Assembly: GCA_035370505.1 (NCBI GenBank)
Contig: DAOOVU010000001.1
Coordinates: forward strand, 17,109 to 81,108
Source of the DNA: Candidatus Dojkabacteria bacterium
Lineage (GTDB): Bacteria; Patescibacteriota; Dojkabacteria; SC72
Direction of reading: 5' to 3'
Length of the DNA: 64,000 nt
Positions 3,990 to 60,631 of the stretch are shown here, piece after piece. The translations under genes were made by a program, and so were the position numbers. Each line of letters begins with the position of its first letter. Within the stretch, counting starts at the first letter, position 1. The notes beneath the pieces were generated by a model. That model was not told where the DNA came from, did not search any database, and worked only from the letters and a program-made list of their open reading frames with translations.

Positions 3990-4228
3990 ATTTGGATGAA
4001 TTTGATGAAAAATATTTTAGGAGTCTTTCTCCAAAGGATACCAAGTCCAATACAAATGAGTTTTGATTTTGATGAATCTAATGATAAATAATTGATATTT
4101 ATCATGGAAGAAGCTTGGTTGGTTTTTTACCAATTATTTTTATTGATAAGCCGAGCTTCTTCCTTCTTCTCTTTTGTTTTAACCTTCTATATATGTCCAT
4201 TTTGTGTACTGTTGTATAATACTTATGT

Positions 4229-5686
4229 ATGAATGATAAAAAAGTATATATAACTACGACTTTGCCGTATGTAAATGCAGAACCTCATATTGGTCATGCT
4301 TTAGAATTTGTTCAGGCAGATGCATCTGCTAGGTATTTTCGTCAAAAGTTAGGGAAGGAGAATGTTTTTTTTAATGTAGGCACTGATGAACATGGTTTGA
4401 AGATTTACAGGAAAGCTTTAGAAGAAAATATCTCTATTTATGATTTTGTTGATAAATATGCTCAAAGATTTGTTGATTATTGTAAATTATTTTTTGTTGA
4501 TTATGATTTTTTCTACAGAACTTCTTCCAAAGAGCATGTAAAGGTGGCTCAGGAATTTTGGAAGAGGTGTGCAGATCATGGAGATATTTACAAAAAGAAT
4601 TACAAGGGTTTGTACTGTGTTGGATGTGAGAGATTTATTACAGAAAAAGAATTAGTTGATGGAAAATGTCCAGATCATAATATTGAGCCAGAGCAAAGGG
4701 AGGAAGAAAATTACTTCTTCAGGTTGACATCATACAGAGAAAAACTTCTAAAATGGCTTAATGAAAATCCTGATTGTATCAAACCTAAATCTGCATTTGA
4801 TGAATTAAAGAAAATAATTTCTGAAATAGAGGATATAAGCATATCAAGAGTGAAAGAAAATCTTCCTTGGGGAATTGATGTCCCAGGAGATGATTCTCAA
4901 GTTATGTATGTTTGGTTTGATGCTTTAACGAATTATGTAGGAGCAGTAGGTTTTGGAGAGGATGAAAGGAAACTTATGGAATGGTGGAAAAATTCCGTTC
5001 AGTTTTTTGGGCCTGATAACCTTAGATTTCAGGGAGCTATATGGCAAGGCATGCTTATGTCAGGAAATCTTCCAAATACGAAGAAACTTCTTAGACATGG
5101 AATGGTTTTGGCATCAGATGGAAGAAAGATGTCAAAGTCTTTGGGTAATGTAGTTTCTCCGTTTGAAGAGGAGAAAAAATATGGAGCAGAAATAGTGAGA
5201 TTCTATTTGCTTGCAGGAATTTCAACATTTTTTGATTCTGCATACAGAGAAGAAGATCTTGTTAATATGTATAATGCAAGACTTGCTGATAATTATGGAA
5301 ATTTGCTTAATAGAGTAATACATTTAGCGAATTCTACAGGGGTAAAGATTAATGATGAAGAAAATGTAGAAAAAACTTTTCTTGATGAAGTTAACAAGTA
5401 TGAGTCTGAGATTAGTTCTTTGTATGAAGATTTCGAACTTTCTAGTGCGTTGGAAAAGGTAGATGAACTTGCTGATTTTGGGAATAAATACATTACGAAA
5501 GAGGAACCGTGGAGTAAGGGGTTAGAAAAAGGAAAGGTAGAAATAATACTAAACAATTTGAGTTATTTATTATCTGTTGTTACAAAGTTGTATTATCCTG
5601 CTATTCCAATCAGCAGTGCAAAAGCTGAAAAAGCGTTAAAGAATAGAGAAAAAATAATTCTTTTCAACAAACTTCAGCCTTTATGA
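4229..5686 (+). CDS. metG: Methionine--tRNA ligase
   Basis: N-terminal TTTLPYVNAEPHIGH (HIGH); Cys knuckle CVGCERF...CPDH; KMSKSLGN. Confidence 0.85.
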   Translation: MNDKKVYITTTLPYVNAEPHIGHALEFVQADASARYFRQKLGKENVFFNVGTDEHGLKIYRKALEENISIYDFVDKYAQRFVDYCKLFFVDYDFFYRTSSKEHVKVAQEFWKRCADHGDIYKKNYKGLYCVGCERFITEKELVDGKCPDHNIEPEQREEENYFFRLTSYREKLLKWLNENPDCIKPKSAFDELKKIISEIEDISISRVKENLPWGIDVPGDDSQVMYVWFDALTNYVGAVGFGEDERKLMEWWKNSVQFFGPDNLRFQGAIWQGMLMSGNLPNTKKLLRHGMVLASDGRKMSKSLGNVVSPFEEEKKYGAEIVRFYLLAGISTFFDSAYREEDLVNMYNARLADNYGNLLNRVIHLANSTGVKINDEENVEKTFLDEVNKYESEISSLYEDFELSSALEKVDELADFGNKYITKEEPWSKGLEKGKVEIILNNLSYLLSVVTKLYYPAIPISSAKAEKALKNREKIILFNKLQPL

Positions 5687-14764: not shown

Positions 14765-15700
14765 TTACATAGTTCTAAAATCCCATATATCTTCTTTCTT
14801 TGTATATACAGTTGAGCACTTTTTACAAATGGCTTTTGATTTTGATGAAAAGTCTAGATCTCCCTTACATTTTGGGCAGACAAGTACATCTTCTAATTTT
14901 AATGGAGAATCTAATTGTGGAGTATTTTTAGTTCTGCATACTAAAAATATACTTGGAGGAATATTGGTCCAAGAGAGAGAGTTTTGAAGCAATTTTTCAA
15001 AGAAAATCATAGTGCTAGGATTGAGGAATTTTTTCAATAGTGGGATTCTTAGAAATGAACAACCATACCTTTTCTCAATTGAAAAACCAGCAGTTTCTAA
15101 TTTCTTTTGAATGTCTTTTGGATGATAATTGTAGAATATACCCTTTAATCCTTGTGCTGTCCCTTGTGCATTATGCTCGGAAAGAGGATGTTCATAGGGA
15201 GTTTGATTAAAGAATTTAAAATTGAGATGAGCTATAGCTTTTAGAGATGCTTTTATATGTATTTTGTTTGGAATTTCTTGGATGTAGATGGCATTCCCAT
15301 TCATGACTTTGTGTACTTCTTCAAAATACTCAGGAATATTTTCAATGTGGTGTAGGACTCTAACCATCATTGCTCCATCGAATGTATTTTGCTTGAACGG
15401 CATCTTGTAAGCATTTCCTGCAATTAATTCCACATTAGGATATTTACTCAGTATGTTCTTCCTATTTTTTTGTAATGTCTTTATGGAGTAATCTAGGATT
15501 ATGGGATTTGAATATTTTTTATAGTAGGTTGATGTAAGTCTTCCATATGAACCTCCTATATCTAAAAACCATTTTCCACTTTCACCTTTTAATATTTTTT
15601 GCAGTACATTTCTTTCTGCAAGGTCTTCATATTGCCTAGCTTTCCAGTATTCTCTGTAGTCATAATCAAATAGATCGTAGTCTGTTACATCGTTAGTCAT
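14765..15700 (-). CDS. Class I SAM-dependent methyltransferase with C-terminal zinc-ribbon (Trm112-like) tail
   Basis: FLDIGGSYGRL motif I; FDGAMMVRVLHHI; C-terminal CPKCKGDL...CKKCSTVY. Confidence 0.55.
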   Translation of the reverse strand: MTNDVTDYDLFDYDYREYWKARQYEDLAERNVLQKILKGESGKWFLDIGGSYGRLTSTYYKKYSNPIILDYSIKTLQKNRKNILSKYPNVELIAGNAYKMPFKQNTFDGAMMVRVLHHIENIPEYFEEVHKVMNGNAIYIQEIPNKIHIKASLKAIAHLNFKFFNQTPYEHPLSEHNAQGTAQGLKGIFYNYHPKDIQKKLETAGFSIEKRYGCSFLRIPLLKKFLNPSTMIFFEKLLQNSLSWTNIPPSIFLVCRTKNTPQLDSPLKLEDVLVCPKCKGDLDFSSKSKAICKKCSTVYTKKEDIWDFRTM

Positions 15701-17426
15701 TTTTTAATTTGTTTATAATTTTAGCTGTATGTTCAAGTTGTTTGAGAAGTTCAGCTTGTTTTAGAGTATCTCCGATTTCTTCAGTCATTGCTATCTGTGA
15801 GGATATATTTTTCTGTAGGTTTGTATAATATCCAATTTTAATCTTTTTTATTAAATCTTTGAGTTGAGAATCTCTTTCTTCTGTTGTATCAGGAATTTCT
15901 CTTGCTTGAAATATTAAGTTTTCTACGAGTGTATGGAGTTGTTCTTCATTGTCAAATTGCTTAAAAAATTTTTCTTTATCAAAATTGTTAATTTGTTCAA
16001 GTAAGGATTTGTATATTTGTTCATACGGAGTATCTCTAAAAAAAATAGAGTCGATTATCAATTCTTTGGGAATATCATCATCGTAGAAAATCAGCATCTG
16101 TAAATACAAAAATTCGGGTGTTTTATATTTTTCAGTTTGTAATGACTTTGTAATCTGTTTGTGAGTTTTCGTTTCACGAATATCTATAGGTTTTACTGAA
16201 TTGTATCGAATCTTAGTTATCTTTGTATACTTAGAGATGTAAAGTGCTTTGGTCGAAGTGTCCTTAACGCTTTCTAGGAGAGGCTCAATGACTGCTCTTA
16301 TCTTATTAATATCCTCAAGTTTGTTAAGATCTTTTCCCCCTATAGTGTTAAATAAAATGATAGAGAAAGCCTCCTGTTTGTTTGACAAAGCCTCCTCCAT
16401 TTTCTGAGAACCAGACTGAAGCATTTCATCTATATCTTTGTAAGGAGAGGAAGTCGCTGCATATGGGTTTATTCCTATTTCAGAAGCAAGCTTGAAAGCT
16501 CTAATCAAAGCCATTTTTCCTGCATCATCATTATCAAAAAAGAAGATTATATTTTTAGTTAATGTTGATAATAGCTTTAGCTGTTCTATAGTTAAGCTTG
16601 TTCCAAGTGGAGCTACTATATTTTTAAAACCATGCTGATGAGATGATATTACATCCATAGATCCTTCACATACTATTGCTGAATCCAATTTCCTTATTTC
16701 TTGTTTTGACTCGTATTGTCCAAAAAGATTGTCTTTTTTATGAAAAATTGGTGTTTCAGGGGTATTCATATACTTTGGTCCTTTATCATCACCTGGCATA
16801 ATTCTAGCGGTAAATCCTATGACATCACCTTTTTTAGATCGTATTGGAAACATTATTCTGTTATAGAATTTCTCTTTTATGACTCCATTCTTTTCTGTAA
16901 ATAGCCCAGATTGTAGTAGTTCTTCTTTTGTATATTTTTTCTTGCTATTTAATTCATTTAGAAGATGAGGATATCTCGGAGCAAAACCTATTCCAAAGTT
17001 TTTTATTGTTTCTTTTGTTAAACCTCTTTTTTGTAGGTACTGAGAAGCTTCTTCACTTAATGCAAGTTGTCTGTAATAGTATTTTGTTGCCGTATAGTTA
17101 ATTTCTTCTAAAATCTTGTATTTGGGATTTGGTTCAAATTTTTTTAATTCCACTCCTGCTTCTTTTGCTAATTTTTCTAGTGTTTCTGGAAAATCTAAGT
17201 TCTCAATTTTTTGTATAAAGTTGAAAATATCCCCTGATTCCCCACATCCAAAACATTTGTATCTTTGCAGATCAGGGCTAACCATAAATGATGGTGTTTT
17301 TTCTTTGTGAAAAGGACATAATCCAGAAAAATTCTTTCCAGTCTGTTTAAGCTGGACATATCTGCCAATAACTTGAACAATATCAAGCCTATCTTTTATC
17401 TCTGAAACCTGATTGTTGTACTCCAT
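15693..17426 (-). CDS. dnaG: DNA primase
   Basis: CHC2 zinc finger CPFHKEKTPSFMVSPDLQRYKCFGCGESGD; Toprim region EGSMDVIS...FDNDDAG. Confidence 0.85.
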   Translation of the reverse strand: MEYNNQVSEIKDRLDIVQVIGRYVQLKQTGKNFSGLCPFHKEKTPSFMVSPDLQRYKCFGCGESGDIFNFIQKIENLDFPETLEKLAKEAGVELKKFEPNPKYKILEEINYTATKYYYRQLALSEEASQYLQKRGLTKETIKNFGIGFAPRYPHLLNELNSKKKYTKEELLQSGLFTEKNGVIKEKFYNRIMFPIRSKKGDVIGFTARIMPGDDKGPKYMNTPETPIFHKKDNLFGQYESKQEIRKLDSAIVCEGSMDVISSHQHGFKNIVAPLGTSLTIEQLKLLSTLTKNIIFFFDNDDAGKMALIRAFKLASEIGINPYAATSSPYKDIDEMLQSGSQKMEEALSNKQEAFSIILFNTIGGKDLNKLEDINKIRAVIEPLLESVKDTSTKALYISKYTKITKIRYNSVKPIDIRETKTHKQITKSLQTEKYKTPEFLYLQMLIFYDDDIPKELIIDSIFFRDTPYEQIYKSLLEQINNFDKEKFFKQFDNEEQLHTLVENLIFQAREIPDTTEERDSQLKDLIKKIKIGYYTNLQKNISSQIAMTEEIGDTLKQAELLKQLEHTAKIINKLKND

Positions 17427-31276: not shown

Positions 31277-31305
31277 TTGACAGTATGTTTTCTATTAAAT
31301 ATACT
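31277..31305 (+). promoter_or_regulatory. sigma70 promoter TTGACA-N17-TATACT for hrcA-grpE-dnaK
   Basis: Consensus -35 TTGACA at 31277-31282, 17-nt spacer, TATACT at 31300-31305. Confidence 0.5.
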
Positions 31306-31331
31306 TAGCAGATAATCTTATTCTCTGCTAA
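31305..31331 (+). promoter_or_regulatory. CIRCE operator (HrcA binding site)
   Basis: TTAGCAGAT-N9-CTCTGCTAA, a 9-N9-9 inverted repeat matching the CIRCE consensus TTAGCACTC-N9-GAGTGCTAA. It lies between the -10 box and the hrcA ATG at 31333. Confidence 0.6.
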
Positions 31332-31332
31332 T

Positions 31333-32058
31333 ATGGATCTTACAGAAAGACAGAAGGAGATACTTTTGGCCATAATCCATGAATTTATGGAAGAGCCAGA
31401 AGAAGTTGGTTCTTTATCGCTCGTTGAAAAGTATAATCTAGGAGTAAGTTCGGCCACGATACGAAATGAAATGGTAAAATTGATGAGATTGGGACTGTTG
31501 GAAAAAAGTCATGTATCATCAGGAAGACTTCCTACAGACCAAGCCATCAGATTCTATGTTTCCGAAGTTCTTCGTGACGGGAAGCTAAATCCATTGATAT
31601 CTGTTGAAATTCGTCAAGGAATTTTTCGAGATAGATTTTCTAAAGATACGGTGATTAACTCGATTTTGGAAATAGTTTCTAAAGAGGCAGAGTCATTGGT
31701 TTTCATAATTTTGGATGAGGAAGTTAGATACTATGGAATGTCAAATATATTGAAATATGACGAGTTTAAAGATGTAGACAAAATAGCAACGATATTTGAC
31801 ATACTCGAGGACAAAAGCTTCCTTTTAAATCTGGCTGAAAAGTATTCTAGTTCAGGTGTTTCCCTGCTCATTGGAAGTGAGCTTGGAGTTGAGAATATGT
31901 CAGAGTGTGCTTTGGCTTTCACAAAAATTCCCTTCTGGGACACTGAAAAAGCATATGTAGGAATAATAGGATCTAAGAGAATGGATTATTCGAAAATAAT
32001 ACCTATACTGGATGAGGTCAGAAATTCACTGGTATCATCCATGGCTGGGTGGAATTAA
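31333..32058 (+). CDS. hrcA: Heat-inducible transcription repressor HrcA (short form)
   Basis: N-terminal winged HTH MDLTERQKEILLAIIHEF...SSATIRNEMVKLMRLGLLEKSHVSSGRLPTDQAIRFYV. At 241 aa it is shorter than typical HrcA. Confidence 0.8.
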   Translation: MDLTERQKEILLAIIHEFMEEPEEVGSLSLVEKYNLGVSSATIRNEMVKLMRLGLLEKSHVSSGRLPTDQAIRFYVSEVLRDGKLNPLISVEIRQGIFRDRFSKDTVINSILEIVSKEAESLVFIILDEEVRYYGMSNILKYDEFKDVDKIATIFDILEDKSFLLNLAEKYSSSGVSLLIGSELGVENMSECALAFTKIPFWDTEKAYVGIIGSKRMDYSKIIPILDEVRNSLVSSMAGWN

Positions 32059-42154: not shown

Positions 42155-42454
42155 ATGGGGAACTTTGTAAAGAGAACGGAGAATTTTGTATGTGAAAACT
42201 GTAAAACAGAGAATATTGGCGGTGGATACACGGACCATTGTTTTAAGTGTTTGTATTCAAAACATGTTGATATTAATCCAGGTGATAGGAACTGTAAGTG
42301 CCAAGGACTGATGAAGCCGGTATTTGTAGATATACATAATGGCAAGTATCGAATATATTATGAATGTGAAAAATGTGGCTACAAGCATAGAGTTATTGCT
42401 AGTAAGAATGATAATTTTGAAGAGATTGTAAAATTAACAGGATGTGGATATTAA
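42155..42454 (+). CDS. Cys-rich zinc-ribbon protein (four CxxC/CxC pairs)
   Basis: CENC...CFKC...CKC...CEKC; 99 aa; convergent with the XRE-S24 gene. Confidence 0.45.
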   Translation: MGNFVKRTENFVCENCKTENIGGGYTDHCFKCLYSKHVDINPGDRNCKCQGLMKPVFVDIHNGKYRIYYECEKCGYKHRVIASKNDNFEEIVKLTGCGY

Positions 42455-42993
42455 AACCTTATCTCTTGGGCAATGACTTTCCCAAGAAGTGTATCTTTCA
42501 TGCCTTTTGAAAATCTTTTGACAAAAAGTTTATTTTGATTCTGTACCAAAACTAGATCACCTGCAGAAATATGAGAATTTGGAGAGATATACAAACATCC
42601 AGCTTTAGTAAATTCGTAAGCCTCTGTGCTGTTGATTTCAATGATTGAAGTATCTATGACAAACGCATCTTGATCTTGCTGAATAATCCAGTCGGGACAT
42701 GAATAGAATAAATAAGTGTTTGATTTTGAAAATTTCTTCGGAATCTGGGTAAACAAAGGTACTCTGTTTCCATGAGAAAATGCAATATCATCAGAATCTC
42801 TCAACAAAGCTGACGGAGTTGTATCTAGAGCATCGGCTAAATTGTCTAATTGATTGAGTGGAGAGCTGACACCTCTTTCGTATCTAGATACCATTTCCCA
42901 TGTCTTCCCTATTTTATCAGCAAGCTCCTGTTGTGTAAGTTTCTTTTTCTGCCTATATATCTTTATATTCTCTCCAATATAATTATCTTTCAT
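42451..42993 (-). CDS. XRE-family HTH repressor with C-terminal S24 (LexA/CI-like) peptidase domain
   Basis: HTH IKIYRQKKKLTQQELADKIGKTWEMVSRYERG. The C-terminal region GDLVLVQNQNKLFVKRF matches the S24 Lys motif, with a candidate Ser in VIDTSII. Confidence 0.6.
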   Translation of the reverse strand: MKDNYIGENIKIYRQKKKLTQQELADKIGKTWEMVSRYERGVSSPLNQLDNLADALDTTPSALLRDSDDIAFSHGNRVPLFTQIPKKFSKSNTYLFYSCPDWIIQQDQDAFVIDTSIIEINSTEAYEFTKAGCLYISPNSHISAGDLVLVQNQNKLFVKRFSKGMKDTLLGKVIAQEIRF

Positions 42994-43007
42994 ATATTCA
43001 AATTCTA

Positions 43008-43021
43008 TTTACATATGTAAA
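43008..43021. promoter_or_regulatory. Perfect 14-bp palindrome TTTACATATGTAAA; candidate operator of the XRE-S24 repressor
   Basis: Located 15-28 nt upstream of the repressor start codon (42993, minus strand). Confidence 0.35.
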
Positions 43022-43113
43022 AGGATAGAATAGATTTTACTGTCATAAATAAGAAATATACTTTCTTGTTTTGCAATGATTTTGTAATTTAATAAGCCTA
43101 AAATATTCTGATT

Positions 43114-43251
43114 ATGAATGAAAAAGTCATAGTTTCTCAGATAGAAAAGCTACTCTCCAGCTATAACAAACTTATGGAATCAAACAGTTATAGTCATTCC
43201 AATATCAAAGAAATGAGAGAAATCCTAAAGAAAATACAAAAATCATTATGA
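43114..43251 (+). CDS. Possible small ORF (45 aa)
   Basis: MNEKVIVSQIEKLLSSYNKLMESNSYSHSNIKEMREILKKIQKSL; lies between the repressor and the metallopeptidase genes; no SD; weak. Confidence 0.2.
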   Translation: MNEKVIVSQIEKLLSSYNKLMESNSYSHSNIKEMREILKKIQKSL

Positions 43252-43701
43252 AATTACTTTTATCCAGTTCTCTTTAAGCCATTTGTCTGCTAATTTTTGC
43301 TCCTCGAGTAATCCTCTTTTTTTCAACTCTTTATTAATAATATTTCCCTTGTGTGGTTTGGAAAATTGCTTTTTCAATGGAGAATTAAAGCCATGAGTAT
43401 AATGACATAACTCATGAGCTATTGTTGCTTTTATTACATACTCTGGAACTACCTCATTTCGAAAATATCTAGTTATTGTTATTATAGAAATACTTTTGTT
43501 ATCTTGAACGATATATTCATCATATTTCTTTCTCATTAAACCCTTGATCTTACTTTCATTGTGAGCCAACGATATACATCCAAGCTGCCTTTTAGAATAT
43601 TTTCCAAACTTAATTAGCACAAAATTCTTCCTAGGAACATCACAGAAATAGTTGTCCCATAAGTCATAAAGTAGATTTTCTAAAAAATCATTATCTCTCA
43701 T
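43246..43701 (-). CDS. HExxH zinc metallopeptidase, SprT / DUF45(YgjP) / ImmA-like
   Basis: ATIAHELCHYTHG motif followed by a ...KWLKENW C-terminus; 151 aa. Confidence 0.5.
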   Translation of the reverse strand: MRDNDFLENLLYDLWDNYFCDVPRKNFVLIKFGKYSKRQLGCISLAHNESKIKGLMRKKYDEYIVQDNKSISIITITRYFRNEVVPEYVIKATIAHELCHYTHGFNSPLKKQFSKPHKGNIINKELKKRGLLEEQKLADKWLKENWIKVIS

Positions 43702-43715
43702 TTATTCAATATATT

Positions 43716-45524
43716 TTGACAGCATGTTATCATATTTCAATGAGTCTTAAGAAAACCACAGGCAATTTTACCACATTAAAAAAAGTTCTATCATTTATCT
43801 ATTCTAGATACGCAAAATATGCGGTCTCTAGAGATATTTTGTCTGTAATCTCCTCAATTGCAGAAATCTTGTCAATTACAGTATTTGGTAAATTCATAGA
43901 TGCGACGGTAGAAATATTTGCAGAATGGGACTCTTTTGATCTTACGACATACATAGCGTCTGAGTCTTTTGAATATCTTCTCTTCCTACTACTTCTTTGG
44001 ATATTTTCACAGGTATGTTCCCAAGGGAAATCATACCTATATACAGTAATATCCGAAAAGATTACAAAAGATTCTCAACATATGCTGATATCAAAAGTTG
44101 CAGAATCAAATATGGAAGACGTTGAGAAAGAAGATTTTCAAGATATGATTACATATGTTCCAGCACTTTCAATAGGCAAAATAGCCCCAATATATGATTA
44201 TTTATCAGTCATATTATCTAACATTATTCGTTTTGTAGGAGCGGTCATAATCATTTACAAAATAATGGGTGTTTCTGTATTTTTAATTGTACTATTTGTC
44301 ATTCCAGAAGCGGTAATTGTACACTTGAAAAGGAAGGAAATACTCAGATACCAAGATGAATCAGTAGGAAAATTAAAATTCCTAAATTACATACAAAATC
44401 TTTCCCTTACAATTTCAAACTTTCTTGAATTACGAGTAAACAATGTATATTCATATTTGAAAAGAAAATATGAATCAGAATATGATGAATATCAAACAGG
44501 GTATCTTAAAGCACTCTCTAGCTTGTATTCAGATGATACAGCAGCTGGTATTCTTGGACAGTGCATGAAATTTGGATATGTTCTATATGTACTGTCTGTT
44601 TCTATTGCTAAAAAAGTATCCTTTGGTACATTCAAAGCTTTATATGACTATATTGATTCTGCATATGCAGGAATTTTTAATATATTAAACTCAATCTCCC
44701 TTATAGGGTTTAACTTGGGATATGTTGAAAAATTTTTTGCCCTTGTAGAATACAACTGTTTCGGAGATAAATACCATGGAGATAGAAAACTTGGAAGTCA
44801 CACCCCTTTACTTGAATTTAAAAATTTGAGTTTTGCATACCCTGATGATCCAGAAACACTAATTTTGAAGAATTTAAATATTACAATTAGACCAGGAGAA
44901 AAAGTTGCTTTTCTAGGAGGAGATGGATCTGGAAAAAGTACTACTGTAAAGATATTAACTGGGCTGTATGCTGTTGAGATTGGAGATTATCTGTTAGATA
45001 ACATACCTACAAAAGAATTAGACCGAGGAGAATTGAAGAAAAAGCTTTCTGTAATTTTTCAAGACTACATTAACTATAATTTTAGTCTAAAAGAGAATGT
45101 AGTAATATCAGGACAACGAAAAAATGTAAACGAAGAGCTATACAAAAAGGTTACAAAAATAGCTGGAATAGAAGAATTGAAGAAAGTCGCCAATATTGAG
45201 GATAAAAGTATTCTTGGAAAAGTATTTCCATCAGGAAAAGATCTTTCTCCTGGTTATTGGCAGAGACTTGCGATAGCAAGAATGTTATACAGAAATAAAG
45301 ATATATTCATAATGGATGAACCTTTTACATATGTAGATGATATATCCGCAGAAAAAATTTTGAATGGAATATTTGAATTTGCTGGAGAAGATAGAACAAT
45401 TATATATATAACTAGGAGAACAAAGTTTTTGGAAAAATTTGATAGGATATATTACTTTGAAAAAGGTAAGATCATAAGGGAGGAAAAATGGAGTGAAATA
45501 CAAGATAAACTAGGAGTATTGTAA
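43716..45524 (+). CDS. ABC transporter, fused permease/ATP-binding protein (exporter type)
   Basis: N-terminal TM domain; Walker A GGDGSGKST; signature LSPGYWQRL; Walker B IFIMDEP. Confidence 0.75.
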   Translation: MTACYHISMSLKKTTGNFTTLKKVLSFIYSRYAKYAVSRDILSVISSIAEILSITVFGKFIDATVEIFAEWDSFDLTTYIASESFEYLLFLLLLWIFSQVCSQGKSYLYTVISEKITKDSQHMLISKVAESNMEDVEKEDFQDMITYVPALSIGKIAPIYDYLSVILSNIIRFVGAVIIIYKIMGVSVFLIVLFVIPEAVIVHLKRKEILRYQDESVGKLKFLNYIQNLSLTISNFLELRVNNVYSYLKRKYESEYDEYQTGYLKALSSLYSDDTAAGILGQCMKFGYVLYVLSVSIAKKVSFGTFKALYDYIDSAYAGIFNILNSISLIGFNLGYVEKFFALVEYNCFGDKYHGDRKLGSHTPLLEFKNLSFAYPDDPETLILKNLNITIRPGEKVAFLGGDGSGKSTTVKILTGLYAVEIGDYLLDNIPTKELDRGELKKKLSVIFQDYINYNFSLKENVVISGQRKNVNEELYKKVTKIAGIEELKKVANIEDKSILGKVFPSGKDLSPGYWQRLAIARMLYRNKDIFIMDEPFTYVDDISAEKILNGIFEFAGEDRTIIYITRRTKFLEKFDRIYYFEKGKIIREEKWSEIQDKLGVL

Positions 45525-52307: not shown

Positions 52308-52573
52308 TATCCCTTAAATGGGTTTTCTAATTTTAGAGCTGATATAGCTGCTTCCATCTGTGGAGATTGTATTCCCCTAGCTATAGCTCTATGCATTCTT
52401 TTTTGTTCTGCCTTGTTAAGGAGATATAGATCACTCTCCTTTTTTTGTTGTGGTATTGAATTTGTATCTATAGCATGTGTTATGAGGTAGTTTTCTTCTT
52501 GAATTGTATTTGTGTTATTGTTCTGCTGATTGTCCATTATCGTCATTATTATTCTCTTCTGGATAGCTTTCAA
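52304..52573 (-). CDS. Small hypothetical protein (89 aa) at the distal end of the VirB4 operon
   Basis: Overlaps the VirB4 3' end by 59 nt; N/Q-rich; no motif. Confidence 0.3.
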   Translation of the reverse strand: MKAIQKRIIMTIMDNQQNNNTNTIQEENYLITHAIDTNSIPQQKKESDLYLLNKAEQKRMHRAIARGIQSPQMEAAISALKLENPFKGY

Positions 52574-55145
52574 CTATTCCCTGAGGAGTTAAATGTCCTT
52601 TCCCTTTTTGTATCTTCATTCTGTCTGATACGACCTGTCCAGAGATTGTGCTGTCTTCGATCTTTTGAAGAAAATCTTTTTGTTGTTGGTATCCTCCTGA
52701 ATTCAATTGCATCTCTTGTTGCTTTAGTCTTTCCTCAAGTTCTTTCTGATATTGTTCTCTTTCCTCTTCTAAGAATGTTTTTTCTGTTTCTTTCTTTTCT
52801 ACTGCATGTTTTATAATTTCTTCTTGTCTTGCAATCTTTCCGTCTTTCATAGGTTTTTGTTGTGTTGGAGTATCAAATACTTGTGCTAATTCCTCCATAG
52901 TTCTTGTGTCAGGCTGTCCCTTTCTTTCAGCAAGTTTTTCAAGGTCTCTTGGATCTGAGGTTATCAACTCATGTTCTGATGTGCTAGAGAGGACTTGGAT
53001 TCCAACATGGTTTGATCCTGCGAAGAATAGTCCTTGTCCTTTATCACAGTTCAAAAGGAAATTTTTTTCTCCATCAGAGAGATTAAAGACTTGCTGTAGT
53101 TTATCTGCGGCGGTAGGGCTTTGCATCATAAGCATTTGCAGAGAGGAGTTGGCAATAATTGCCTTCCCCATGTCATTGTTTAGGAAGTCATTTACATCCT
53201 GTGTAATCGTTGATAGGCCAAGATAGTATTTCCTTGCTCTTTTTGCTATGGAGTACATAAATTTTGCAGAATCTTCAGATTGCATCATATACCATGCCTC
53301 ATCTACTATAAGTATTCTTCTTTTTCTGTCTTTTCTTACTTTTGTCCATATAAAATCGAGCATGAGATACATTGCTAATGGTTTTAGTTCTTCCTGCAGG
53401 TCACGAATACTAAAAACAGTAAGAGGGTTGTCAATTTCAAAATTACTTGCTTCGTTGAATACTCCTGCCCCGCTTCCTATGATGTATCTTTCTAGTCTTC
53501 TTGCCAATCCGTGTGCCTCTTCTTCTGCCATTCCTTTTAATACTTTGTAGAGATCTTCTAAAAGTGGAGGCTGTTTACTTTGTGTAGCTGGATCGTATGT
53601 TATGCCTTTCTCTCTGTAAGTTAGTATGAGAGCTCTGTCAAGTATGGATTCTTCTATATTAGTGAGATTTCTGTATAGTACTTTGAAGAAGCCATGTAGA
53701 GAAAGTAATTTCATTCTTAGCTCGTCATCTCCCTCTTCTGTAGATGATGCCAATTCGAATGGGTTCATTTTATTTCCCTTATCCTGTGAGAATGATATAT
53801 ATGAACCATTAACAGCAGATGCTAGGTTTTCGTATTCTCTTTCTGGGTCAATAATAATTATTTCGGTTCCGAGCATTAAACTTCTCAAAGCTTCTAACTT
53901 TACAAAATAACTTTTTCCAGCTCCTGACTTTGCAAACACAACGGTATTTGCATTCTCAAGTTCAAACCTATCAAAAATCACAAGGCTTTTGTTATGCATA
54001 TTTAATCCGTACATTATTCCATGATCCATAGTTAATTCTGATGTGACGAATGGGAATGTAGTTGCTAAGGATGTCGTATCCATATTTCTTGTAATGTACA
54101 AGTTGTCAATTCCAAGAGGTTGTGTGCTTATAAATCCTTGCTCCTGTTGAAGGGTTGCTGGTTTTGCTGTCACATTTATAGCTGCTAGAGTGGATACTAC
54201 ATTCCTAGATATTTTTTCTAGTTCATCCTTACTTTTTGCATATATTGTAATGTACATCGTGAAATGGAAGAATTTTTCTGTACCTTCAGCTATTGAATCT
54301 TGCAACTGTTGTGCATCGGAGAGAGCAACTTTTAGTGATGGATCTATTACTTTCCTTTCTTCCATTTGTGTATACATTGTTGCTTCCATTTCACCTATTT
54401 TCTTTTTTAATTTCTCAAGTATTGTTTTAGAATCAACTGGGTAATAGAAAGTACTTATTCTGAGGGAATGTTCAAAATTAATAATAGGAGAAAGCCAATT
54501 TGGCCCAACAAATCTAGGATACCCACTTACAAACAGGGTTCTAAAATAGTAATCTCCCATTTGAAGGTGGTTGAAATCGACTTCTAGATCTATTGGAGCA
54601 ATGATATCTTGTAAAGAGATATTAACATCTTCACCAATTATAGATGGAATTACTGAAGAATCTTCTTGAGGAGCTTCTTCTTGTGTTTTATTCTCAGGTG
54701 TTGGAGTCGTGGATTTACTATCCTTGTTTACTTGTGTGGAGATTGTATCAAGAAACTGAAAGAGTGGATTTTTGTTTTGTTTTGCAGGTGTACTAGTTTG
54801 TTGTGTTGTTTGTGAGGAAGTAGTATTTTCCTTTTCGTCCTTGTTTTGTGTCGGCTGTGGAGTAACCTTTATGTTGTTTTTCTTGTTATATTGACCTGCA
54901 AAATAATCAAGAATCTTTAGAAGTGGATTCTTTTTTGGTTTTGTTTTCTCTTCATCAGCAGGGAATGGATCTAAATATTTAGCCCTATTATCATTTGGGT
55001 CTTTTTGCTGTGAAGTTTTTATTGGGTTATTGATAGGATTTTTCTGTAAAGTTGATATTGGGTCTTTATTTAATGTTTTAGTTAAGTCATTCTCAAATGT
55101 TCTGTTGTAATTATTTTTGCTTATGTCTTCCATACTATTCTTCAT
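52515..55145 (-). CDS. virB4: VirB4/TrbE-family type IV secretion ATPase (Gram-positive type) with N-terminal low-complexity extension
   Basis: Walker A VVFAKSGAGKSYFVKL; Walker B ILIVDEAWYMM; a CagE/TrbE-type N-domain (...YYFRTLFVSGYPRFVGPNWL...) preceded by ~170 aa of T/Q/P/N-rich sequence with two copies of a K(K/N)NPL(L/F)x(I/F)LD motif. Confidence 0.85.
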   Translation of the reverse strand: MKNSMEDISKNNYNRTFENDLTKTLNKDPISTLQKNPINNPIKTSQQKDPNDNRAKYLDPFPADEEKTKPKKNPLLKILDYFAGQYNKKNNIKVTPQPTQNKDEKENTTSSQTTQQTSTPAKQNKNPLFQFLDTISTQVNKDSKSTTPTPENKTQEEAPQEDSSVIPSIIGEDVNISLQDIIAPIDLEVDFNHLQMGDYYFRTLFVSGYPRFVGPNWLSPIINFEHSLRISTFYYPVDSKTILEKLKKKIGEMEATMYTQMEERKVIDPSLKVALSDAQQLQDSIAEGTEKFFHFTMYITIYAKSKDELEKISRNVVSTLAAINVTAKPATLQQEQGFISTQPLGIDNLYITRNMDTTSLATTFPFVTSELTMDHGIMYGLNMHNKSLVIFDRFELENANTVVFAKSGAGKSYFVKLEALRSLMLGTEIIIIDPEREYENLASAVNGSYISFSQDKGNKMNPFELASSTEEGDDELRMKLLSLHGFFKVLYRNLTNIEESILDRALILTYREKGITYDPATQSKQPPLLEDLYKVLKGMAEEEAHGLARRLERYIIGSGAGVFNEASNFEIDNPLTVFSIRDLQEELKPLAMYLMLDFIWTKVRKDRKRRILIVDEAWYMMQSEDSAKFMYSIAKRARKYYLGLSTITQDVNDFLNNDMGKAIIANSSLQMLMMQSPTAADKLQQVFNLSDGEKNFLLNCDKGQGLFFAGSNHVGIQVLSSTSEHELITSDPRDLEKLAERKGQPDTRTMEELAQVFDTPTQQKPMKDGKIARQEEIIKHAVEKKETEKTFLEEEREQYQKELEERLKQQEMQLNSGGYQQQKDFLQKIEDSTISGQVVSDRMKIQKGKGHLTPQGIVESYPEENNNDDNGQSAEQ

Positions 55146-55775: not shown

Positions 55776-56600
55776 CTACAAAGCATTAATCTTAATTGGT
55801 AATCTATTATTTATTTTATTCATTATTATTTCAACAGAGGGAAATTCATATTGAGGGTGCTGGAAATCTATTGTGTAAGTTCCTGGCTCCCACTCCTTGT
55901 TAGTTAGGAAATAGCCGTTTGGGCCAGTTTTGCTTGCATAAAGGATTTTTCCGTTGGAATCCCTTAGATATGCTACAACATTTGGGATAGGTTTAAAATC
56001 TTTAGTACAGAGCCAGCAGTTAATATTGCCGGGAAGGTTTTCTAAACCTTTTGTTGAGAATTGATAATTTGCTAGGTTTTCATCGGTAATAATCAGTTTT
56101 GTTGGATCAATTTGTGTGGTCTGCTGAGGAGCAGTCTGCAGAATGTCTAAATTATCTTCAGTTTTTTCATCAGCTTTCTCAGTGGTTATTGTATCTAAAC
56201 CTCCTCCTATTATCTTTTTTGTATTTTCTTTCTGATCTTTATTAATTAATTGACCATCTTTTGTTGGTTTCAGAAGTGGCTTTGTTCTCGCTTCCTTCAT
56301 TTGTTTGTTTAGCCATGTTCTTTGTGTTGGATTATTTATAGCGGTTATATAACTTTGTATGAATTTATCAGCATCTTGTCCATTTATTGGGACAAGTCCA
56401 AGAACAATTCCTATGATTGAGCTGACTATACATATTGGGATACCTAAAATTGCAGGCATAATGTCTGATACCACTAAATACACCATTAGTCCGCCGAATC
56501 CAACTCCTATGGCGAGGTATGTAAACTCTTTTAATGTGAATTTAGTAAATAACTTAAATTCAACATCTAAAACATTTTGCGGTATAGCATGTTGTCTCAT
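55776..56600 (-). CDS. PrgI/VirB3-like two-TM protein with C-terminal beta-rich extracytoplasmic domain
   Basis: N-terminal ...VEFKLFTKFTLKEFTYLAIGVGFGGLMVYLVV... (PrgI-family pattern), a second TM, then a C-terminal domain with PGTYTI-type beta-sandwich signature; first gene of the minus-strand operon. Confidence 0.5.
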   Translation of the reverse strand: MRQHAIPQNVLDVEFKLFTKFTLKEFTYLAIGVGFGGLMVYLVVSDIMPAILGIPICIVSSIIGIVLGLVPINGQDADKFIQSYITAINNPTQRTWLNKQMKEARTKPLLKPTKDGQLINKDQKENTKKIIGGGLDTITTEKADEKTEDNLDILQTAPQQTTQIDPTKLIITDENLANYQFSTKGLENLPGNINCWLCTKDFKPIPNVVAYLRDSNGKILYASKTGPNGYFLTNKEWEPGTYTIDFQHPQYEFPSVEIIMNKINNRLPIKINAL

Positions 56601-56999: not shown

Positions 57000-57008
57000 T
57001 GGTATAAT
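57000..57008 (+). promoter_or_regulatory. Extended -10 element TGGTATAAT, 6 nt before the ATG at 57015
   Basis: TGGTATAAT at 57000-57008 with the ATG at 57015 implies a leaderless or near-leaderless transcript. Confidence 0.3.
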
Positions 57009-57014
57009 CAATAT

Positions 57015-57797
57015 ATGAATATATCGGAGAGAATAGAGGAGCTTAGAGTTTTTCGATCGTTGATGGGTATCGATTTATCCGCCTCTGATATTAGCAGAAT
57101 TTGGGGTTCTCAGTACTCTAAAAAAGCGAGAAATCAACCACCTGATAGATGTAATCCTGTAATTGAAGAAAAAATTCAAATTTTACAAAAAAATCTAAAC
57201 CACTTCCTCCTTTTGGATAAAGTCAAGTTTATAGGTATTTCAGGCTCTGTAGGTGCCGGTTTTGCTAAAAGGGAGGATGATATTGATCTCTTCATAGTAG
57301 TTGAAGATGACTTTATGTGGGTGTATAGGTTGTACTTAGAATTATCAAATTTATTTAATGGGAAAGTTCGTCAAAAGAAACATAAAAATGATGTAAAAGA
57401 TAAATTTTGTGTAAATCTAATAGCTGAGGAACGTGGGGTTGTATTTGATAATGACATCTTTAATTTTCATGAATTAATGTTTTTGAAACCTGTGTATAAC
57501 AAAGAGTATATCTATCAGATTTACCTTAAAAATGAATGGTTGTTTGATGATTGGGGAATTAAGCCGTGTTCAAAACAAGAGAAATATGTGAAAAAGAATA
57601 ATGTAATTAAAAAAGTATTTAATGAAACCTGCTTCTTAATACAGTTGTCATTCATGTTTATCTCAAATCATGCTCCAGATCTCCATAGATTAGTGAGAAA
57701 CAACAATATCGGTAGGATAGAATTTTTCCCATGTGAATTCAAATTGAAGAAAATAAAGGAATACAAAAGAAAATTGGCATCAGCCCAAATTGTTTAA
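57015..57797 (+). CDS. Pol-beta-superfamily nucleotidyltransferase domain protein (260 aa)
   Basis: GISGSVGAGFAKREDDIDLFIVVEDD matches the GS...DxD minimal NTase motif; the C-terminal ~150 aa are of unknown fold. Confidence 0.5.
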   Translation: MNISERIEELRVFRSLMGIDLSASDISRIWGSQYSKKARNQPPDRCNPVIEEKIQILQKNLNHFLLLDKVKFIGISGSVGAGFAKREDDIDLFIVVEDDFMWVYRLYLELSNLFNGKVRQKKHKNDVKDKFCVNLIAEERGVVFDNDIFNFHELMFLKPVYNKEYIYQIYLKNEWLFDDWGIKPCSKQEKYVKKNNVIKKVFNETCFLIQLSFMFISNHAPDLHRLVRNNNIGRIEFFPCEFKLKKIKEYKRKLASAQIV

Positions 57798-58823
57798 ATC
57801 TATAAATTGAGCATCTTTAATAATTGCTTTTGGAAGATCCTTCTTGTCTATTATTGTTATGAATGTTTGTTGTTTATCTAATTCTTTTTTATTGAATATT
57901 GATTTTGTATTTTCTTCATCTAGCTCAGACGCAATATCATCTAATAGTAGAATAGGATAGTAATCAAGCCTATTTTTAATGACATCCTGTGTCTTAAAGA
58001 CTAATTTTCCTATGGATATCCTTTTTTCTCCTCTAGATCCAAACTGTCTAATATTTTTTCCGTTAATTAACTGCCAATCATCTCGATGGGGACCGATATT
58101 CGTATATCCAGTAGCAATATCTCTCCTTTTAGAATTCTCAATAGCATCTGCTAACGAGGTATCTCCGTTTGATTTTGTATATTCAATATGAATATCGTCT
58201 GAATACATTTCATCTATGATACGAACCCTTTCTGTTTGTATTATTTCGGACAATCTTAAAAACTCTGCAGTCCAGAAGTTCAGTTGAACATCATTTATAG
58301 CGACTATTCCATAATCATAAAACTTTTTTGCTAATTTTTTTAAATATGCATTCCTTTGTCTTAGAACTTTCCTAAACAATGTAAGCGTTTCTATATATTC
58401 GTAGTCCACTGTAGAAATTATTTCGTCTAGGAACTTTCTTCTAGCAGAGGCTGAGATCATTAAAATTTCTATTTGTTCTGGGTTGAATATTGTAGATGCA
58501 TTTTGGTCAAAAAATTTTCTTGGTGAAACTTTTTGGTCATCTATTTTTAATACTCTTGTTCCAGCATTTTTATACAAAGAATAGACTTTATCATTATTTG
58601 TCATTTCAATTCTTGTGAATTTTTCACTCATATTTTGATCTGTATTTATGAATTCATCACTAATAGCCCATGGAGATTTTCCATTTGTAAGAAGGTATAT
58701 TGCTTCCAGTACTGTGCTTTTGCCTTTCGCATTGTTGCCATGCAGTACTATAAGTTTGCTTTGTATATTCAAATCTAAGTTTTTAAACTTTCTGAAATTT
58801 GTTAGTTTTATATTTGTTATCAT
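57780..58823 (-). CDS. recF: DNA replication and repair protein RecF
   Basis: MITNIKLTNFRKFKNLDL..., Walker A GNNAKGKSTVLEAIYLL, C-terminal LLLDDIASELDE. Confidence 0.8.
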   Translation of the reverse strand: MITNIKLTNFRKFKNLDLNIQSKLIVLHGNNAKGKSTVLEAIYLLTNGKSPWAISDEFINTDQNMSEKFTRIEMTNNDKVYSLYKNAGTRVLKIDDQKVSPRKFFDQNASTIFNPEQIEILMISASARRKFLDEIISTVDYEYIETLTLFRKVLRQRNAYLKKLAKKFYDYGIVAINDVQLNFWTAEFLRLSEIIQTERVRIIDEMYSDDIHIEYTKSNGDTSLADAIENSKRRDIATGYTNIGPHRDDWQLINGKNIRQFGSRGEKRISIGKLVFKTQDVIKNRLDYYPILLLDDIASELDEENTKSIFNKKELDKQQTFITIIDKKDLPKAIIKDAQFIDLNNLG

Positions 58824-60631
58824 TATGTCTTTAATATAGCAAGAAAAGCATCTTGAGGTATATTTACTTGTCCTATTTGTTTTAATCTCTTTTTGCCTTT
58901 TTTCTGTTTTTCTAGGAGTTTCTTTTTTCTCGAGTAATCTCCTCCGTATAGTTTAGCAGTAACATCTTTTCTAAAGGCTTTTACATCTTCTCTGGCTATT
59001 ATTTGAGATCCTATTGCTGCTTGAAGTGGCACAGAAAATTGTTGTCTTGGTATTACATCTTTCATTATTTCTAGAAGTTTCAATGCTTTTGTTCTTGCAT
59101 TTTGTCTTACTTCTAAAAAGTCTAATGCTGATATTTCTTCATGATTAACAAGCACAGAAACTTTTACTATGTCAGAAGGAAAATAATCTATGAATTCATA
59201 TTCCATAGAGGCGTATCCGCTGGATATATTCTTAATTTGATCAAAGAAATTTGAAATTAAAGAGGCTAAAGGCATGTCATATTCTAAAATAATATAGCGA
59301 TTTGAGGAATTTTTATCATTAGCATTCAAATATTTAGTATTGACATATTGTCCTCGTTTGTTTTGACATAATTCCATTAGGTCTCCGATATATTTATCTG
59401 GTGTCATTATTTCAACTCGGACCCATGGTTCTCTGATTTCTTTTATTTGTTCTGCATTTGGTAACTCTTGTGGTGTTTGTATAACAATCTCAGTTCCATC
59501 TGTTTTTGTAACTTGATATTCTACTGTTGGTGCGGTAACTATCAGGTTAACACCATATTCTCTTTCTAATCTTTCTTGAACAATTTCCATATGGAGTAGT
59601 CCAAGGAATCCACATCTAAATCCGGATCCTAAGAGGTTTGATCTTTGTGATGTGAAGGATAGTGAAGCGTCGTTTAGAGAGAGTTTAGTTAGTGATATTC
59701 TGAGATTTTCGTAATCTTCTGTATCTATTGGGAAGAATGTTGCAAACATATTTGGTTTTGGAATTTTATATCCAGGGAGTGGCTTTGTAGTTGTTTTGTC
59801 AGAGATTGTGTCGCCAACTGTAAAACAGCTAATATCCTTCATTCCTGTGGCTATATACCCTACTTCTCCAGCACTTAATGAGTTAGTTGGCTGTAAATCT
59901 GGATTAAATACTCCTATTTCAGTAGGTTTAAATTGCAGGTGTTTTTGTATCATATATAGGGGAGTTGTTTTTCCAGCTTCAAAGGTTATTTTCCCATCAA
60001 AAAGTCTAACTGCTATGACTACTCCTCTGTGTTCATCGTAAAATGAATCAAACACCAGTCCACTTAGAGGTTTATTGGAATCTCCTAATGGAGGAGGAGA
60101 TTCTTTAATAATTGCATCTAAGAGTATTTGTACATTTTCTCCTGTTTTTCCAGAGACTTTAATTATTTTGTCTTTTGAAAATCCTAGAAGTGATTCCATT
60201 TCATTTTCTATCTGTGGAATATTAATATCTGGTAGATCTATTTTGTTTATTACTGGAATTAGTTTTAATCCTAAATCAGTGGCTTTTCTTGCATTCGAAA
60301 TTGTTTGTGCTTGTATTCCTTGACTTGCATCTACTAGTAGTATTGCTGATTCACATGCGGCGAGAGATCTTGAGACTTCGTATGAAAAATCTACATGTCC
60401 GGGAGTATCTATAAGGTTGAGTTCATGTCCTTTCCAATTCATTTTACATGCCTGAAGTTTAATAGTTATTCCTTTTTCTTGTTCTAAATCTAGTTTATCC
60501 AGTAGTCTTTCTTTTCCTTTTTCTCTTATTGCTGTCCCATTGGCTATTTCAAGCATTCTGTCTGCAAGTGTTGATTTGCCATGATCTATGTGGGCGATTA
60601 TCGAAAAGTTCCTTATTTTTTCTTGTGTCAT
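58823..60631 (-). CDS. lepA: Elongation factor 4 (LepA)
   Basis: NFSIIAHIDHGKSTLADRMLE, DTPGHVDF, and LepA-specific C-terminal domain (...KKLLEKQKKGKKRLKQIGQVNIPQDAFLAILK). Confidence 0.9.
   Translation of the reverse strand: MTQEKIRNFSIIAHIDHGKSTLADRMLEIANGTAIREKGKERLLDKLDLEQEKGITIKLQACKMNWKGHELNLIDTPGHVDFSYEVSRSLAACESAILLVDASQGIQAQTISNARKATDLGLKLIPVINKIDLPDINIPQIENEMESLLGFSKDKIIKVSGKTGENVQILLDAIIKESPPPLGDSNKPLSGLVFDSFYDEHRGVVIAVRLFDGKITFEAGKTTPLYMIQKHLQFKPTEIGVFNPDLQPTNSLSAGEVGYIATGMKDISCFTVGDTISDKTTTKPLPGYKIPKPNMFATFFPIDTEDYENLRISLTKLSLNDASLSFTSQRSNLLGSGFRCGFLGLLHMEIVQERLEREYGVNLIVTAPTVEYQVTKTDGTEIVIQTPQELPNAEQIKEIREPWVRVEIMTPDKYIGDLMELCQNKRGQYVNTKYLNANDKNSSNRYIILEYDMPLASLISNFFDQIKNISSGYASMEYEFIDYFPSDIVKVSVLVNHEEISALDFLEVRQNARTKALKLLEIMKDVIPRQQFSVPLQAAIGSQIIAREDVKAFRKDVTAKLYGGDYSRKKKLLEKQKKGKKRLKQIGQVNIPQDAFLAILKT

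Follow-up and report, generated by a model that had tools for sequence, protein, structure and literature searches.

We analysed a repressor–protease locus in a 64,000-nucleotide (nt) stretch of contig DAOOVU010000001.1, referred to here as the window, whose own numbering is used for all coordinates. The window is a chromosomal segment of Candidatus Dojkabacteria (WS6; Patescibacteria, or candidate phyla radiation, CPR). The locus comprises a gene for a cI-like repressor, a gene for a zinc metalloprotease upstream of it on the same strand and, between the two, a small open reading frame (ORF) on the opposite strand, together with the candidate control elements collected in the table. We regard the identities of these parts as well assigned. 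A first-pass annotation of the same DNA had listed a Cys-rich zinc-ribbon gene, a convergent gene of the XRE type with a helix-turn-helix (HTH), a 45-amino-acid (aa) ORF and a peptidase with the motif ATIAHELCH beside the repressor region, and all four are real. The first of them, which encodes an RNHCP domain, overlaps the convergent repressor gene by 4 nt and lies outside the core module.

Features of the locus, in positions of the window
Feature	Position	Strand	Basis or remark
RNHCP-domain zinc-ribbon protein, 99 aa	42155..42454	+	PF12647 E 3.4e-21, 75.5 bits vs gathering cut-off 24
cI-like repressor, 180 aa	42451..42993	-	HTH_3 E 2.7e-10; λ repressor/LexA-like predicted fold
-10 box TAGAAT, repressor's own promoter	43002..43007	-	8 nt before ATG; leaderless mRNA (predicted)
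Perfect 14-bp palindrome TTTACATATGTAAA	43008..43021	.	14 nt upstream of repressor ATG, abutting -10 box
Lineage-conserved upstream element TT.C.TA....A.GAA-N6-tTCTATwC	43027..43056	-	-63..-34 of repressor; weak version in this species
Second, imperfect palindrome copy TTTACTGTCATAAA	43036..43049	.	28 bp centre-to-centre from first; inverted-repeat pair
Direct repeats TTGCAA-N5-TTGTAA upstream of small ORF	43071..43087	+	Read TTACA...TTAC on repressor strand
-10-like TAAAAT of small ORF	43099..43104	+	9 nt before ATG; conserved TA..AT block at same position in clade alignment
Small helical protein, 45 aa	43114..43251	+	Positional conservation; divergent from repressor
Divergent SprT-like zinc metalloprotease, 151 aa	43246..43701	-	ATIAHELCH; family-level PF10263; AF2/Foldseek
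Protease promoter region	43702..43734	-	-10 TATGAT (43729-43734) and 7-codon leaderless upstream ORF

The locus was compared with 80 related genome loci (numbered with the prefix L), most of them named Dojkabacteria or WS6. Identical copies of the repressor were found on other contigs (up to 100 kb) in the same gene order. The module is flanked on one side by murJ, a hypothetical gene, groES and groEL, and on the other by an ATP-binding cassette (ABC) transporter gene, folD, glyA, thyX and dcd. Its position between the ABC/folD/glyA/thyX/dcd block and groESL is kept in approximately 70 Dojkabacteria species. The look at related genomes that the first-pass annotation had called for thus returned the same housekeeping setting, and the idea of a domesticated chromosomal module is borne out, its supposed role as a stress switch aside. 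Taken as a whole, the locus is perhaps best explained as a lineage-specific housekeeping regulatory module, a chromosomal core feature of the Dojkabacteria, an explanation that we put forward tentatively.

The repressor consists of an XRE HTH domain (approximately residues 1–65), a flexible linker (approximately residues 64–76) and a shortened S24-like β domain (residues 76–180). The linker falls within a segment, residues 61–80, that has a low predicted local distance difference test (pLDDT) score and a variable sequence. We recovered 177 full-length homologues; source names were attached to part of them only, and most of those named were Dojkabacteria. An AlphaFold2 (AF2) model based on 34 orthologues reached a pLDDT of 87, and the best Foldseek match of this model was the full-length λ repressor (3bdn, E 1.9e-7), with further matches to the λ-186 hybrid (template-modelling (TM) score 0.51), λ C-terminal fragments, 8gmu, 2hnf and Thermotoga LexA 3k2z. 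HTH-cupin proteins (HppE) also scored against the model. An S24/cI-like β fold is present in the modelled C-terminal domain. At the sequence level, PHROG family 4 (phrog_4, cI-type repressors) aligned over residues 3–162 (E 2.7e-12), and the Protein Data Bank matches included P22 C2, SinR, the ICEBs1 regulator 7t8i and DdrO 6jq1. The predicted architecture of the repressor is therefore that of λ cI, namely XRE HTH, linker and S24-like domain. The S24 domain named in the first-pass annotation is upheld by the λ repressor/LexA-like model and not by Pfam, where Peptidase_S24 (PF00717) stays below its cut-off (E 0.11, 12.6 bits vs 23.3, residues 129–165 only). PF00717 was carried by none of the 120 repressor homologues listed, and hhalign of the repressor against LexA/cI/UmuD gave a probability of 25%.

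The conservation of residues was judged on the alignment of the 34 orthologues. The invariant residues of the C-terminal domain are P79, F81, F88, Y97, P100, W102, G132, G171 and E177, and no Ser, Thr or Cys is invariant there. In a profile alignment to LexA, cI and UmuD, LexA S119 stood opposite a Glu of the window repressor in a column that varies among the orthologues; LexA K156 stood opposite a Lys, but this column is also variable across the family. The Ala-Gly (or Cys-Gly) cleavage site after the PLF/PLV strand is missing, with VPLFxxIPxxxxF in place of LPLVGRVAAGEP (xxIPxx; IP/KK at the site), and the domain is approximately 30 residues shorter than the LexA C-terminus. The Ser/Lys candidates that had been described as retained are thus a trait of the single sequence and not of the family, since the candidate columns vary. 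Because neither the Ser/Lys dyad nor the Ala-Gly site is conserved, the alignment makes LexA-type self-cleavage of the repressor very unlikely.

In the protease, the HELCH motif is encoded at 43402–43416 and the putative third zinc ligand, H117, at 43351–43353. The window protein itself reached no Pfam family above threshold (SprT-like PF10263, E 0.03, 14.6 bits vs a cut-off of 25.6), and it had no M78 match in Pfam. A profile search of 1.84 billion cluster representatives yielded only 167 relatives, some of which are annotated as PF10263/SprT-like by their sources. When 50 diverse members of the family were examined, 39 matched SprT-like PF10263 (best E 6.2e-7), six YgjP-like, three WLM and two, weakly, M78; H96, E97, H100, G104 and H117 were invariant in all 50. 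The AF2 model (pLDDT 90, predicted TM score 0.87) matched SPRTN 6mdw/6mdx best in Foldseek (E 4.9e-3, TM 0.49), followed by the minigluzincin abylysin 4jiu; the scores are weak, yet these were the only hits with a probability of 1.0, and no ImmA/IrrE structure was among the fold matches. Judged by its family and its predicted fold, the protein is a divergent SprT-like zincin and not a member of M78/ImmA/IrrE or YgjP, which answers the question of classification raised in the first-pass annotation. The zinc-ligand motif HExxH...H of this putative protease is intact.

Seven look-ups outside the Dojkabacteria returned eight loci with seven distinct contexts, and in all seven contexts the protease orthologue lies beside DNA-repair genes, the genomes being of the Saccharibacteria type and Chloroflexota. 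In five loci, the gene immediately upstream of the orthologue encodes an AddA/UvrD-PD-(D/E)XK helicase-nuclease, and in four of them the two genes overlap; RmuC is near in four of the five and, on its own, in one further locus. In two Chloroflexota loci, dnaX-ybaB-recR-recO lies upstream. No XRE gene neighbours the orthologue in any of the seven contexts. The SprT-like family is thus a housekeeping, DNA-repair-associated one that is found elsewhere without the repressor. A housekeeping YgjP had been named beforehand as the finding that would reduce the pairing to coincidence; the peptidase is not YgjP, but it does belong to a housekeeping repair family that occurs without the repressor.

Within the family, many members from outside the Dojkabacteria (P0243–P0297) end in an Arg/Lys-rich tail of 20–45 aa (e.g. 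...RRRRKRR...), and 20 of 59 tails of at least 12 aa contain at least 30% Lys/Arg. The Dojkabacteria proteases (P0121–P0240) stop at most 12 aa past the W..NW motif, so that the XRE-paired lineage appears from its sequences to lack this presumptive nucleic-acid-binding tail. In G+C-rich genomes there are members of approximately 280–300 aa with two stretches that match the profile, the second being a degenerate repeat of the domain (P0287, P0293, P0294, P0337–P0342, P0345, P0348, P0353, P0370 and P0382).

The adjacency of the two genes was counted over those 77 species-level loci whose upstream sequence was long enough. In 69 of them, the gene immediately upstream of the repressor gene, on the same strand, is that of the protease, and the HExxH metallopeptidase is thus confirmed as a conserved neighbour of the repressor. 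Other neighbours are less constant (ABC gene, 62/72 loci; groEL, 49/66), and the pair is retained in five loci lacking the ABC neighbour and in 11 lacking groEL. The gap between protease and repressor genes is 55 nt in many species and approximately 250 nt in the clade of the window. In the literature, we found no paper on SprT-like proteases paired with XRE repressors.

In approximately 21 species of the clade, an ORF of 37–67 aa with a common helix-loop-helix pattern lies on the strand opposite the repressor gene, its ATG 115–120 nt from the repressor ATG. Comparable opposite-strand ORFs occur in more distant clades, including loci without the protease, and the ORF is lost in clades with gaps of 55–75 nt. 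In the window, the ORF and the protease gene share 6 nt at their 3' ends. A tblastn search with the 45-aa ORF gave matches in the nearest species only, no match was obtained in Pfam or PHROG, and the similarity among the small ORFs is weak (8 bits, a score reached by approximately 3 of 200 shuffles). As the sequence-based support is weak, the case for a gene rests on position, which indicates that the ORF is probably a real gene transcribed divergently from the repressor. The direct repeats upstream of it are kept as cTTACA-N6-7-TTAC in 23 species of the clade.

A TAnnAT hexamer stands 5–10 nt before the start codon in 18 of the 45 genes of the window, vs approximately 4% at random positions, and a Shine–Dalgarno (SD)-like motif in 1 of the 45. 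Judged by these sequences, initiation in this organism appears to be largely leaderless or SD-less. Most operon-first genes carry a TAnAAT box, for example at 4215–4231 and 57001–57017 and upstream of 15693–17426 and 58823–60631. At the repressor, the TAnAAT hexamer at −14 to −9 is conserved in approximately 70 species. The upstream ORF (uORF) in the protease promoter region extends on the minus strand from its ATG at 43723–43725 to a TAA at 43702–43704 and ends exactly at the protease ATG. When related species were read in frame, similar uORFs with a TAA-ATG or ATGA overlap were found after TATAAT-N3-ATG. The protease −10 box overlaps, nearly base for base, the −10 box TATCAT of the divergent ABC gene (43728–43733, plus strand), the ATG of which is at 43740; the gene call in L002 has this shorter ABC start as well.

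In the region upstream of the repressor, the most widely conserved candidate for an operator is the A.GAA-N6-TTCTAT element, the TCTAT core of which is at 43030–43034 in this species. An alignment of 69 distinct sequences anchored on TCTAT showed A at −12 in 66, G at −10 in 56 and C at −19 in 53. Species with gaps of 55 nt and of 250 nt to the protease gene conserve the element alike, and between the −10 box and the repressor ATG there is a second box, TCTAT/TTCTTA. On these alignments, the element is the best candidate operator, ahead of the palindrome.

A working model can be drawn from these parts. The repressor would dimerise through its dead S24 domain and bind at the conserved A.GAA-N6-TTCTAT element; the TTTAC-N4-GTAAA palindromes may be further binding sites in this species. 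Binding would repress both its own gene and the small divergent gene. We consider such an autoregulatory switch, which includes the small gene and is not self-cleaving, somewhat probable. Because the repressor could not cleave itself, the inducing signal would have to reach it from outside, and the neighbouring protease would be the most economical candidate. In eukaryotes, DNA activates SprT-type proteases, which cleave proteins bound to DNA at flexible segments. By the logic of ImmR/ImmA, DdrO/IrrE and CapH/CapP, the protease would cut the flexible linker of the repressor (residues 64–76). That the neighbouring protease inactivates the repressor by cleavage seems, from this comparison, unlikely, if worth serious attention. 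More doubtful still is the full circuit, in which DNA damage would be sensed independently of RecA and LexA: a DNA-activated SprT-like protease of the Dojkabacteria would cut the linker of a cI-like repressor and so release a small effector gene, perhaps with further targets, from repression.

Several findings weigh against this model. The evidence for a coupling of protease and repressor consists of adjacency only. The adjacency of approximately 90% is only modestly informative, since synteny is high over the whole region. In 8 of the 77 loci, including the deepest branches, the repressor has no adjacent protease, and some of these loci retain the small ORF. The protease and the repressor each have their own promoter, and the partial correlation of the two in a mirror-tree analysis (0.34) was no higher than that of unrelated pairs. 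The protease family has no XRE partner in other phyla, and its primary role is therefore independent of the repressor. The operator is so far a candidate. Scanning the window and 1.16 Mb of related loci for motifs turned up few additional sites, and no regulon was identified.

Most of these findings are what would be expected if the two genes were adjacent but independent. The protease would then be a stand-alone SprT-like repair enzyme, acting for example on DNA–protein crosslinks, and the XRE protein with its small gene an unrelated autoregulated factor; the two would be neighbours merely through the very stable gene order of small genomes, in which the whole block from the ABC gene to groESL is syntenic. 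The protease orthologues beside AddA, RmuC and RecO, the separate promoters, the repressor and small-ORF unit without protease in deep branches and the lack of a specific co-evolution signal all agree with independence. On the other hand, the protease is the most conserved neighbour of the repressor and has outlasted rearrangements that removed others, a repressor unable to cleave itself needs some external input, and pairs of an XRE protein and a metalloprotease recur as a functional unit in other systems. Independence is, in our judgement, quite possibly the correct explanation.

The perfect palindrome had been proposed as the operator of the repressor. Its presence is confirmed; its role as an operator failed phylogenetic footprinting and gained no credible extra copies. 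The palindrome abuts the −10 box, a classic position for promoter occlusion, an imperfect second copy lies nearby, L007 retains it with one mismatch, and the intergenic regions of the clade repeatedly contain TTACA-like half-sites. However, all aligned repressor orthologues have the same recognition helix, WEM[IV]SRYE, yet the left half-site, conserved in L007 only, is lost in L008/L009 (59% protein identity), and the motif is absent from the clade with 55-nt gaps. As part of the promoter-proximal block ATATGTAAnTAGAA, the right half ATATGTAA is conserved within the clade, and it may merely belong to the promoter core. Perfect 14-bp palindromes show no excess over chance in the window (4 observed vs 6.7 expected). 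Thus, a functional operator at the palindrome in this species is rather doubtful, and the imperfect second copy is species-specific and of uncertain meaning.

Near-copies of the palindrome in the window lie in coding sequence, are weak or merely overlap a start codon. The only copy with one mismatch, at 45324–45337 (TTTACATATGTAGA), was rejected as an operator: it encodes FTYVD just after the Walker-B motif MDEP of the ABC ATPase, and its third codon positions vary in relatives. Of the genes in the window, only one is recognisable as a recombination or repair gene; it encodes a RecF-like SMC_N protein (57780–58823; one-base overlap with the end of lepA), and neither the palindrome nor a TCTAT-type site was found upstream of it.

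The first-pass annotation had also raised the possibility of a LexA equivalent. Such a protein would be a non-canonical SOS repressor of the type found in Bacteroidetes, in which RecA-stimulated S24 self-cleavage would free a palindromic SOS box. The non-canonical LexA of Bacteroidetes combines HTH_3 (XRE) with S24 and has kept its catalytic residues (PMC8565304). The Dojkabacteria repressor shares the HTH_3 and S24-like architecture and has the Lys aligned to LexA K156, and a canonical LexA was not encountered in the 1.46 Mb of sequence compared, a sample that is not genome-wide. Against this stand the loss of the Ser/Lys dyad and of the cleavage site, a C-terminal domain devoid of any invariant Ser, Thr or Cys, the S24 score below the Pfam cut-off, a palindrome that is not conserved despite the invariant recognition helix, no further non-coding copy of it in the window and none at recF. 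LexA-equivalent control is therefore scarcely credible.

Equally remote is an immunity module of the ImmR/ImmA type left by an integrative and conjugative element (ICE) or a prophage, for although an XRE repressor stands beside a HExxH peptidase and a small divergent gene (cf. immR/xis), its HTH resembles that of phage repressors and VirB4/TraG-like and PrgI-like genes lie 9–13 kb off, the peptidase is not M78, the gene order is protease to repressor, no integrase or other element gene is present at the module, the position among housekeeping genes is identical in approximately 70 species, viral contigs gave matches to the HTH domain only and no full-length relatives, and PADLOC found no system match beyond the HTH. 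The suggestions of an ImmR/ImmA-like module and of a relic of a lost element have accordingly been abandoned, the pair being conserved lineage-wide. The remark that no ICE genes are nearby holds within approximately 8 kb; farther out, the window contains a VirB4/TraG-like P-loop ATPase gene (52515–55145; PF19044, E 1e-26) and a PrgI-family gene (55776–56600), both type-IV-secretion-like.

Some neighbouring genes were noted in addition. The RNHCP gene is present only in the closest relatives, L007–L009, and then again near the repressor in the distant clade L077–L079, where, on the opposite strand, it comes just downstream of the repressor gene. Beside it, this clade has a conserved gene of 200–310 aa that starts MIVKNK.QRVAVLVDVQNLYYSARN and is a candidate NYN/LabA-like gene; in L080, the MIVKNK-type gene (200–310 aa) is present without an RNHCP ORF. 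The coordinates of the RNHCP/MIVKNK genes relative to the repressor start are +1725..+2803 in L077, +1653..+3021 in L078, +579..+1580 in L079 and +1514..+2203 in L080. RNHCP may thus be an ancestral neighbour of the repressor that was lost from most lineages.

Several distant loci carry, upstream of the protease/repressor pair and on the opposite strand, a gene of 137–139 aa that starts M(A/R)RL(T/S)VWNPW and looks Hsp20-like by eye (L066, −728..−309; L077, −1119..−706; L078, −1898..−1485; L079, −3838..−3425). Stress genes flank the module repeatedly, with the putative Hsp20-like gene upstream and groESL downstream. Elsewhere in the window, an inverted repeat similar to CIRCE (controlling inverted repeat of chaperone expression), TTAGCAGAT-N9-CTCTGCTAA, lies at 31305–31331, directly upstream of the gene for a short HrcA (241 aa, 31333–32058) that heads the grpE-dnaK operon. 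A copy of equal clarity was not found upstream of groES (40160).

Gene regulation and the sensing of DNA damage are almost unstudied in CPR/Patescibacteria, and a lineage-wide pair of repressor and protease offers a concrete, testable hypothesis. If the two are coupled, a third, unrelated protease family would join the repressor–protease switches, after S24 self-cleavage and M78 ImmA/IrrE/CapP, and a small family of bacterial SprT-like proteins, whose other links are to AddA, RmuC and RecO, would gain a first function. If they are not coupled, the locus would represent ordinary housekeeping synteny, and the palindrome should not serve as an SOS box.

When the locus is compared with known systems, its back-to-back arrangement recalls that of Gram-positive lexA, which stands next to a small SOS gene under its control (yneA, divS or chiZ). 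We take this likeness as a lead only, since the small Dojkabacteria protein, unlike YneA, DivS and ChiZ, is a predicted soluble helical hairpin that lacks transmembrane and LysM segments, and nothing ties it to cell division. The protease shares with SPRTN/Wss1 and Escherichia coli SprT the HExxH motif and a downstream His-Gly, and its best structural match is the SPRTN protease domain. Unlike them, it has only 151 aa, no zinc-ribbon or other DNA-binding tail and a Pfam score under the cut-off, and its family is small (167 of 1.84 billion cluster representatives).

The repressor has the same two-domain architecture and predicted fold as λ cI, P22 C2 and the non-canonical LexA of Bacteroidetes. 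Its C-terminal strand GKVIAQEIRF resembles GKVIASQW of λ cI. The arrangement of the promoter suggests autoregulation, as with λ cI, whose promoter PRM also yields a leaderless mRNA. Unlike cI and LexA, the Dojkabacteria repressor has no conserved Ser, Lys or Ala-Gly, its domain is shorter, and the scans found no SOS-box regulon. As the dyad and the cleavage site are not conserved, it does not belong to the LexA/S24 self-cleaving class.

In ImmR/ImmA of ICEBs1, DdrO/IrrE (PprI) of Deinococcus and CapH/CapP of the cyclic-oligonucleotide-based antiphage signalling system (CBASS), the repressor is cleaved by the protease once DNA is damaged. The Dojkabacteria locus likewise encodes a non-self-cleaving XRE-HTH repressor beside a small HExxH zinc protease, and, as in immR/xis, a small gene is divergent from the repressor. 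Unlike in the known systems, the Dojkabacteria protease is SprT-like and not M78/COG2856, the order is protease to repressor with separate promoters, and the repressor carries a degenerate S24-like domain. No mobile element or defence operon surrounds the Dojkabacteria pair, which belongs to the core of the whole lineage. Because the protease family and the mobile context do not fit, the locus falls outside the ImmR/ImmA class; by analogy with that class, it may nevertheless work like it.

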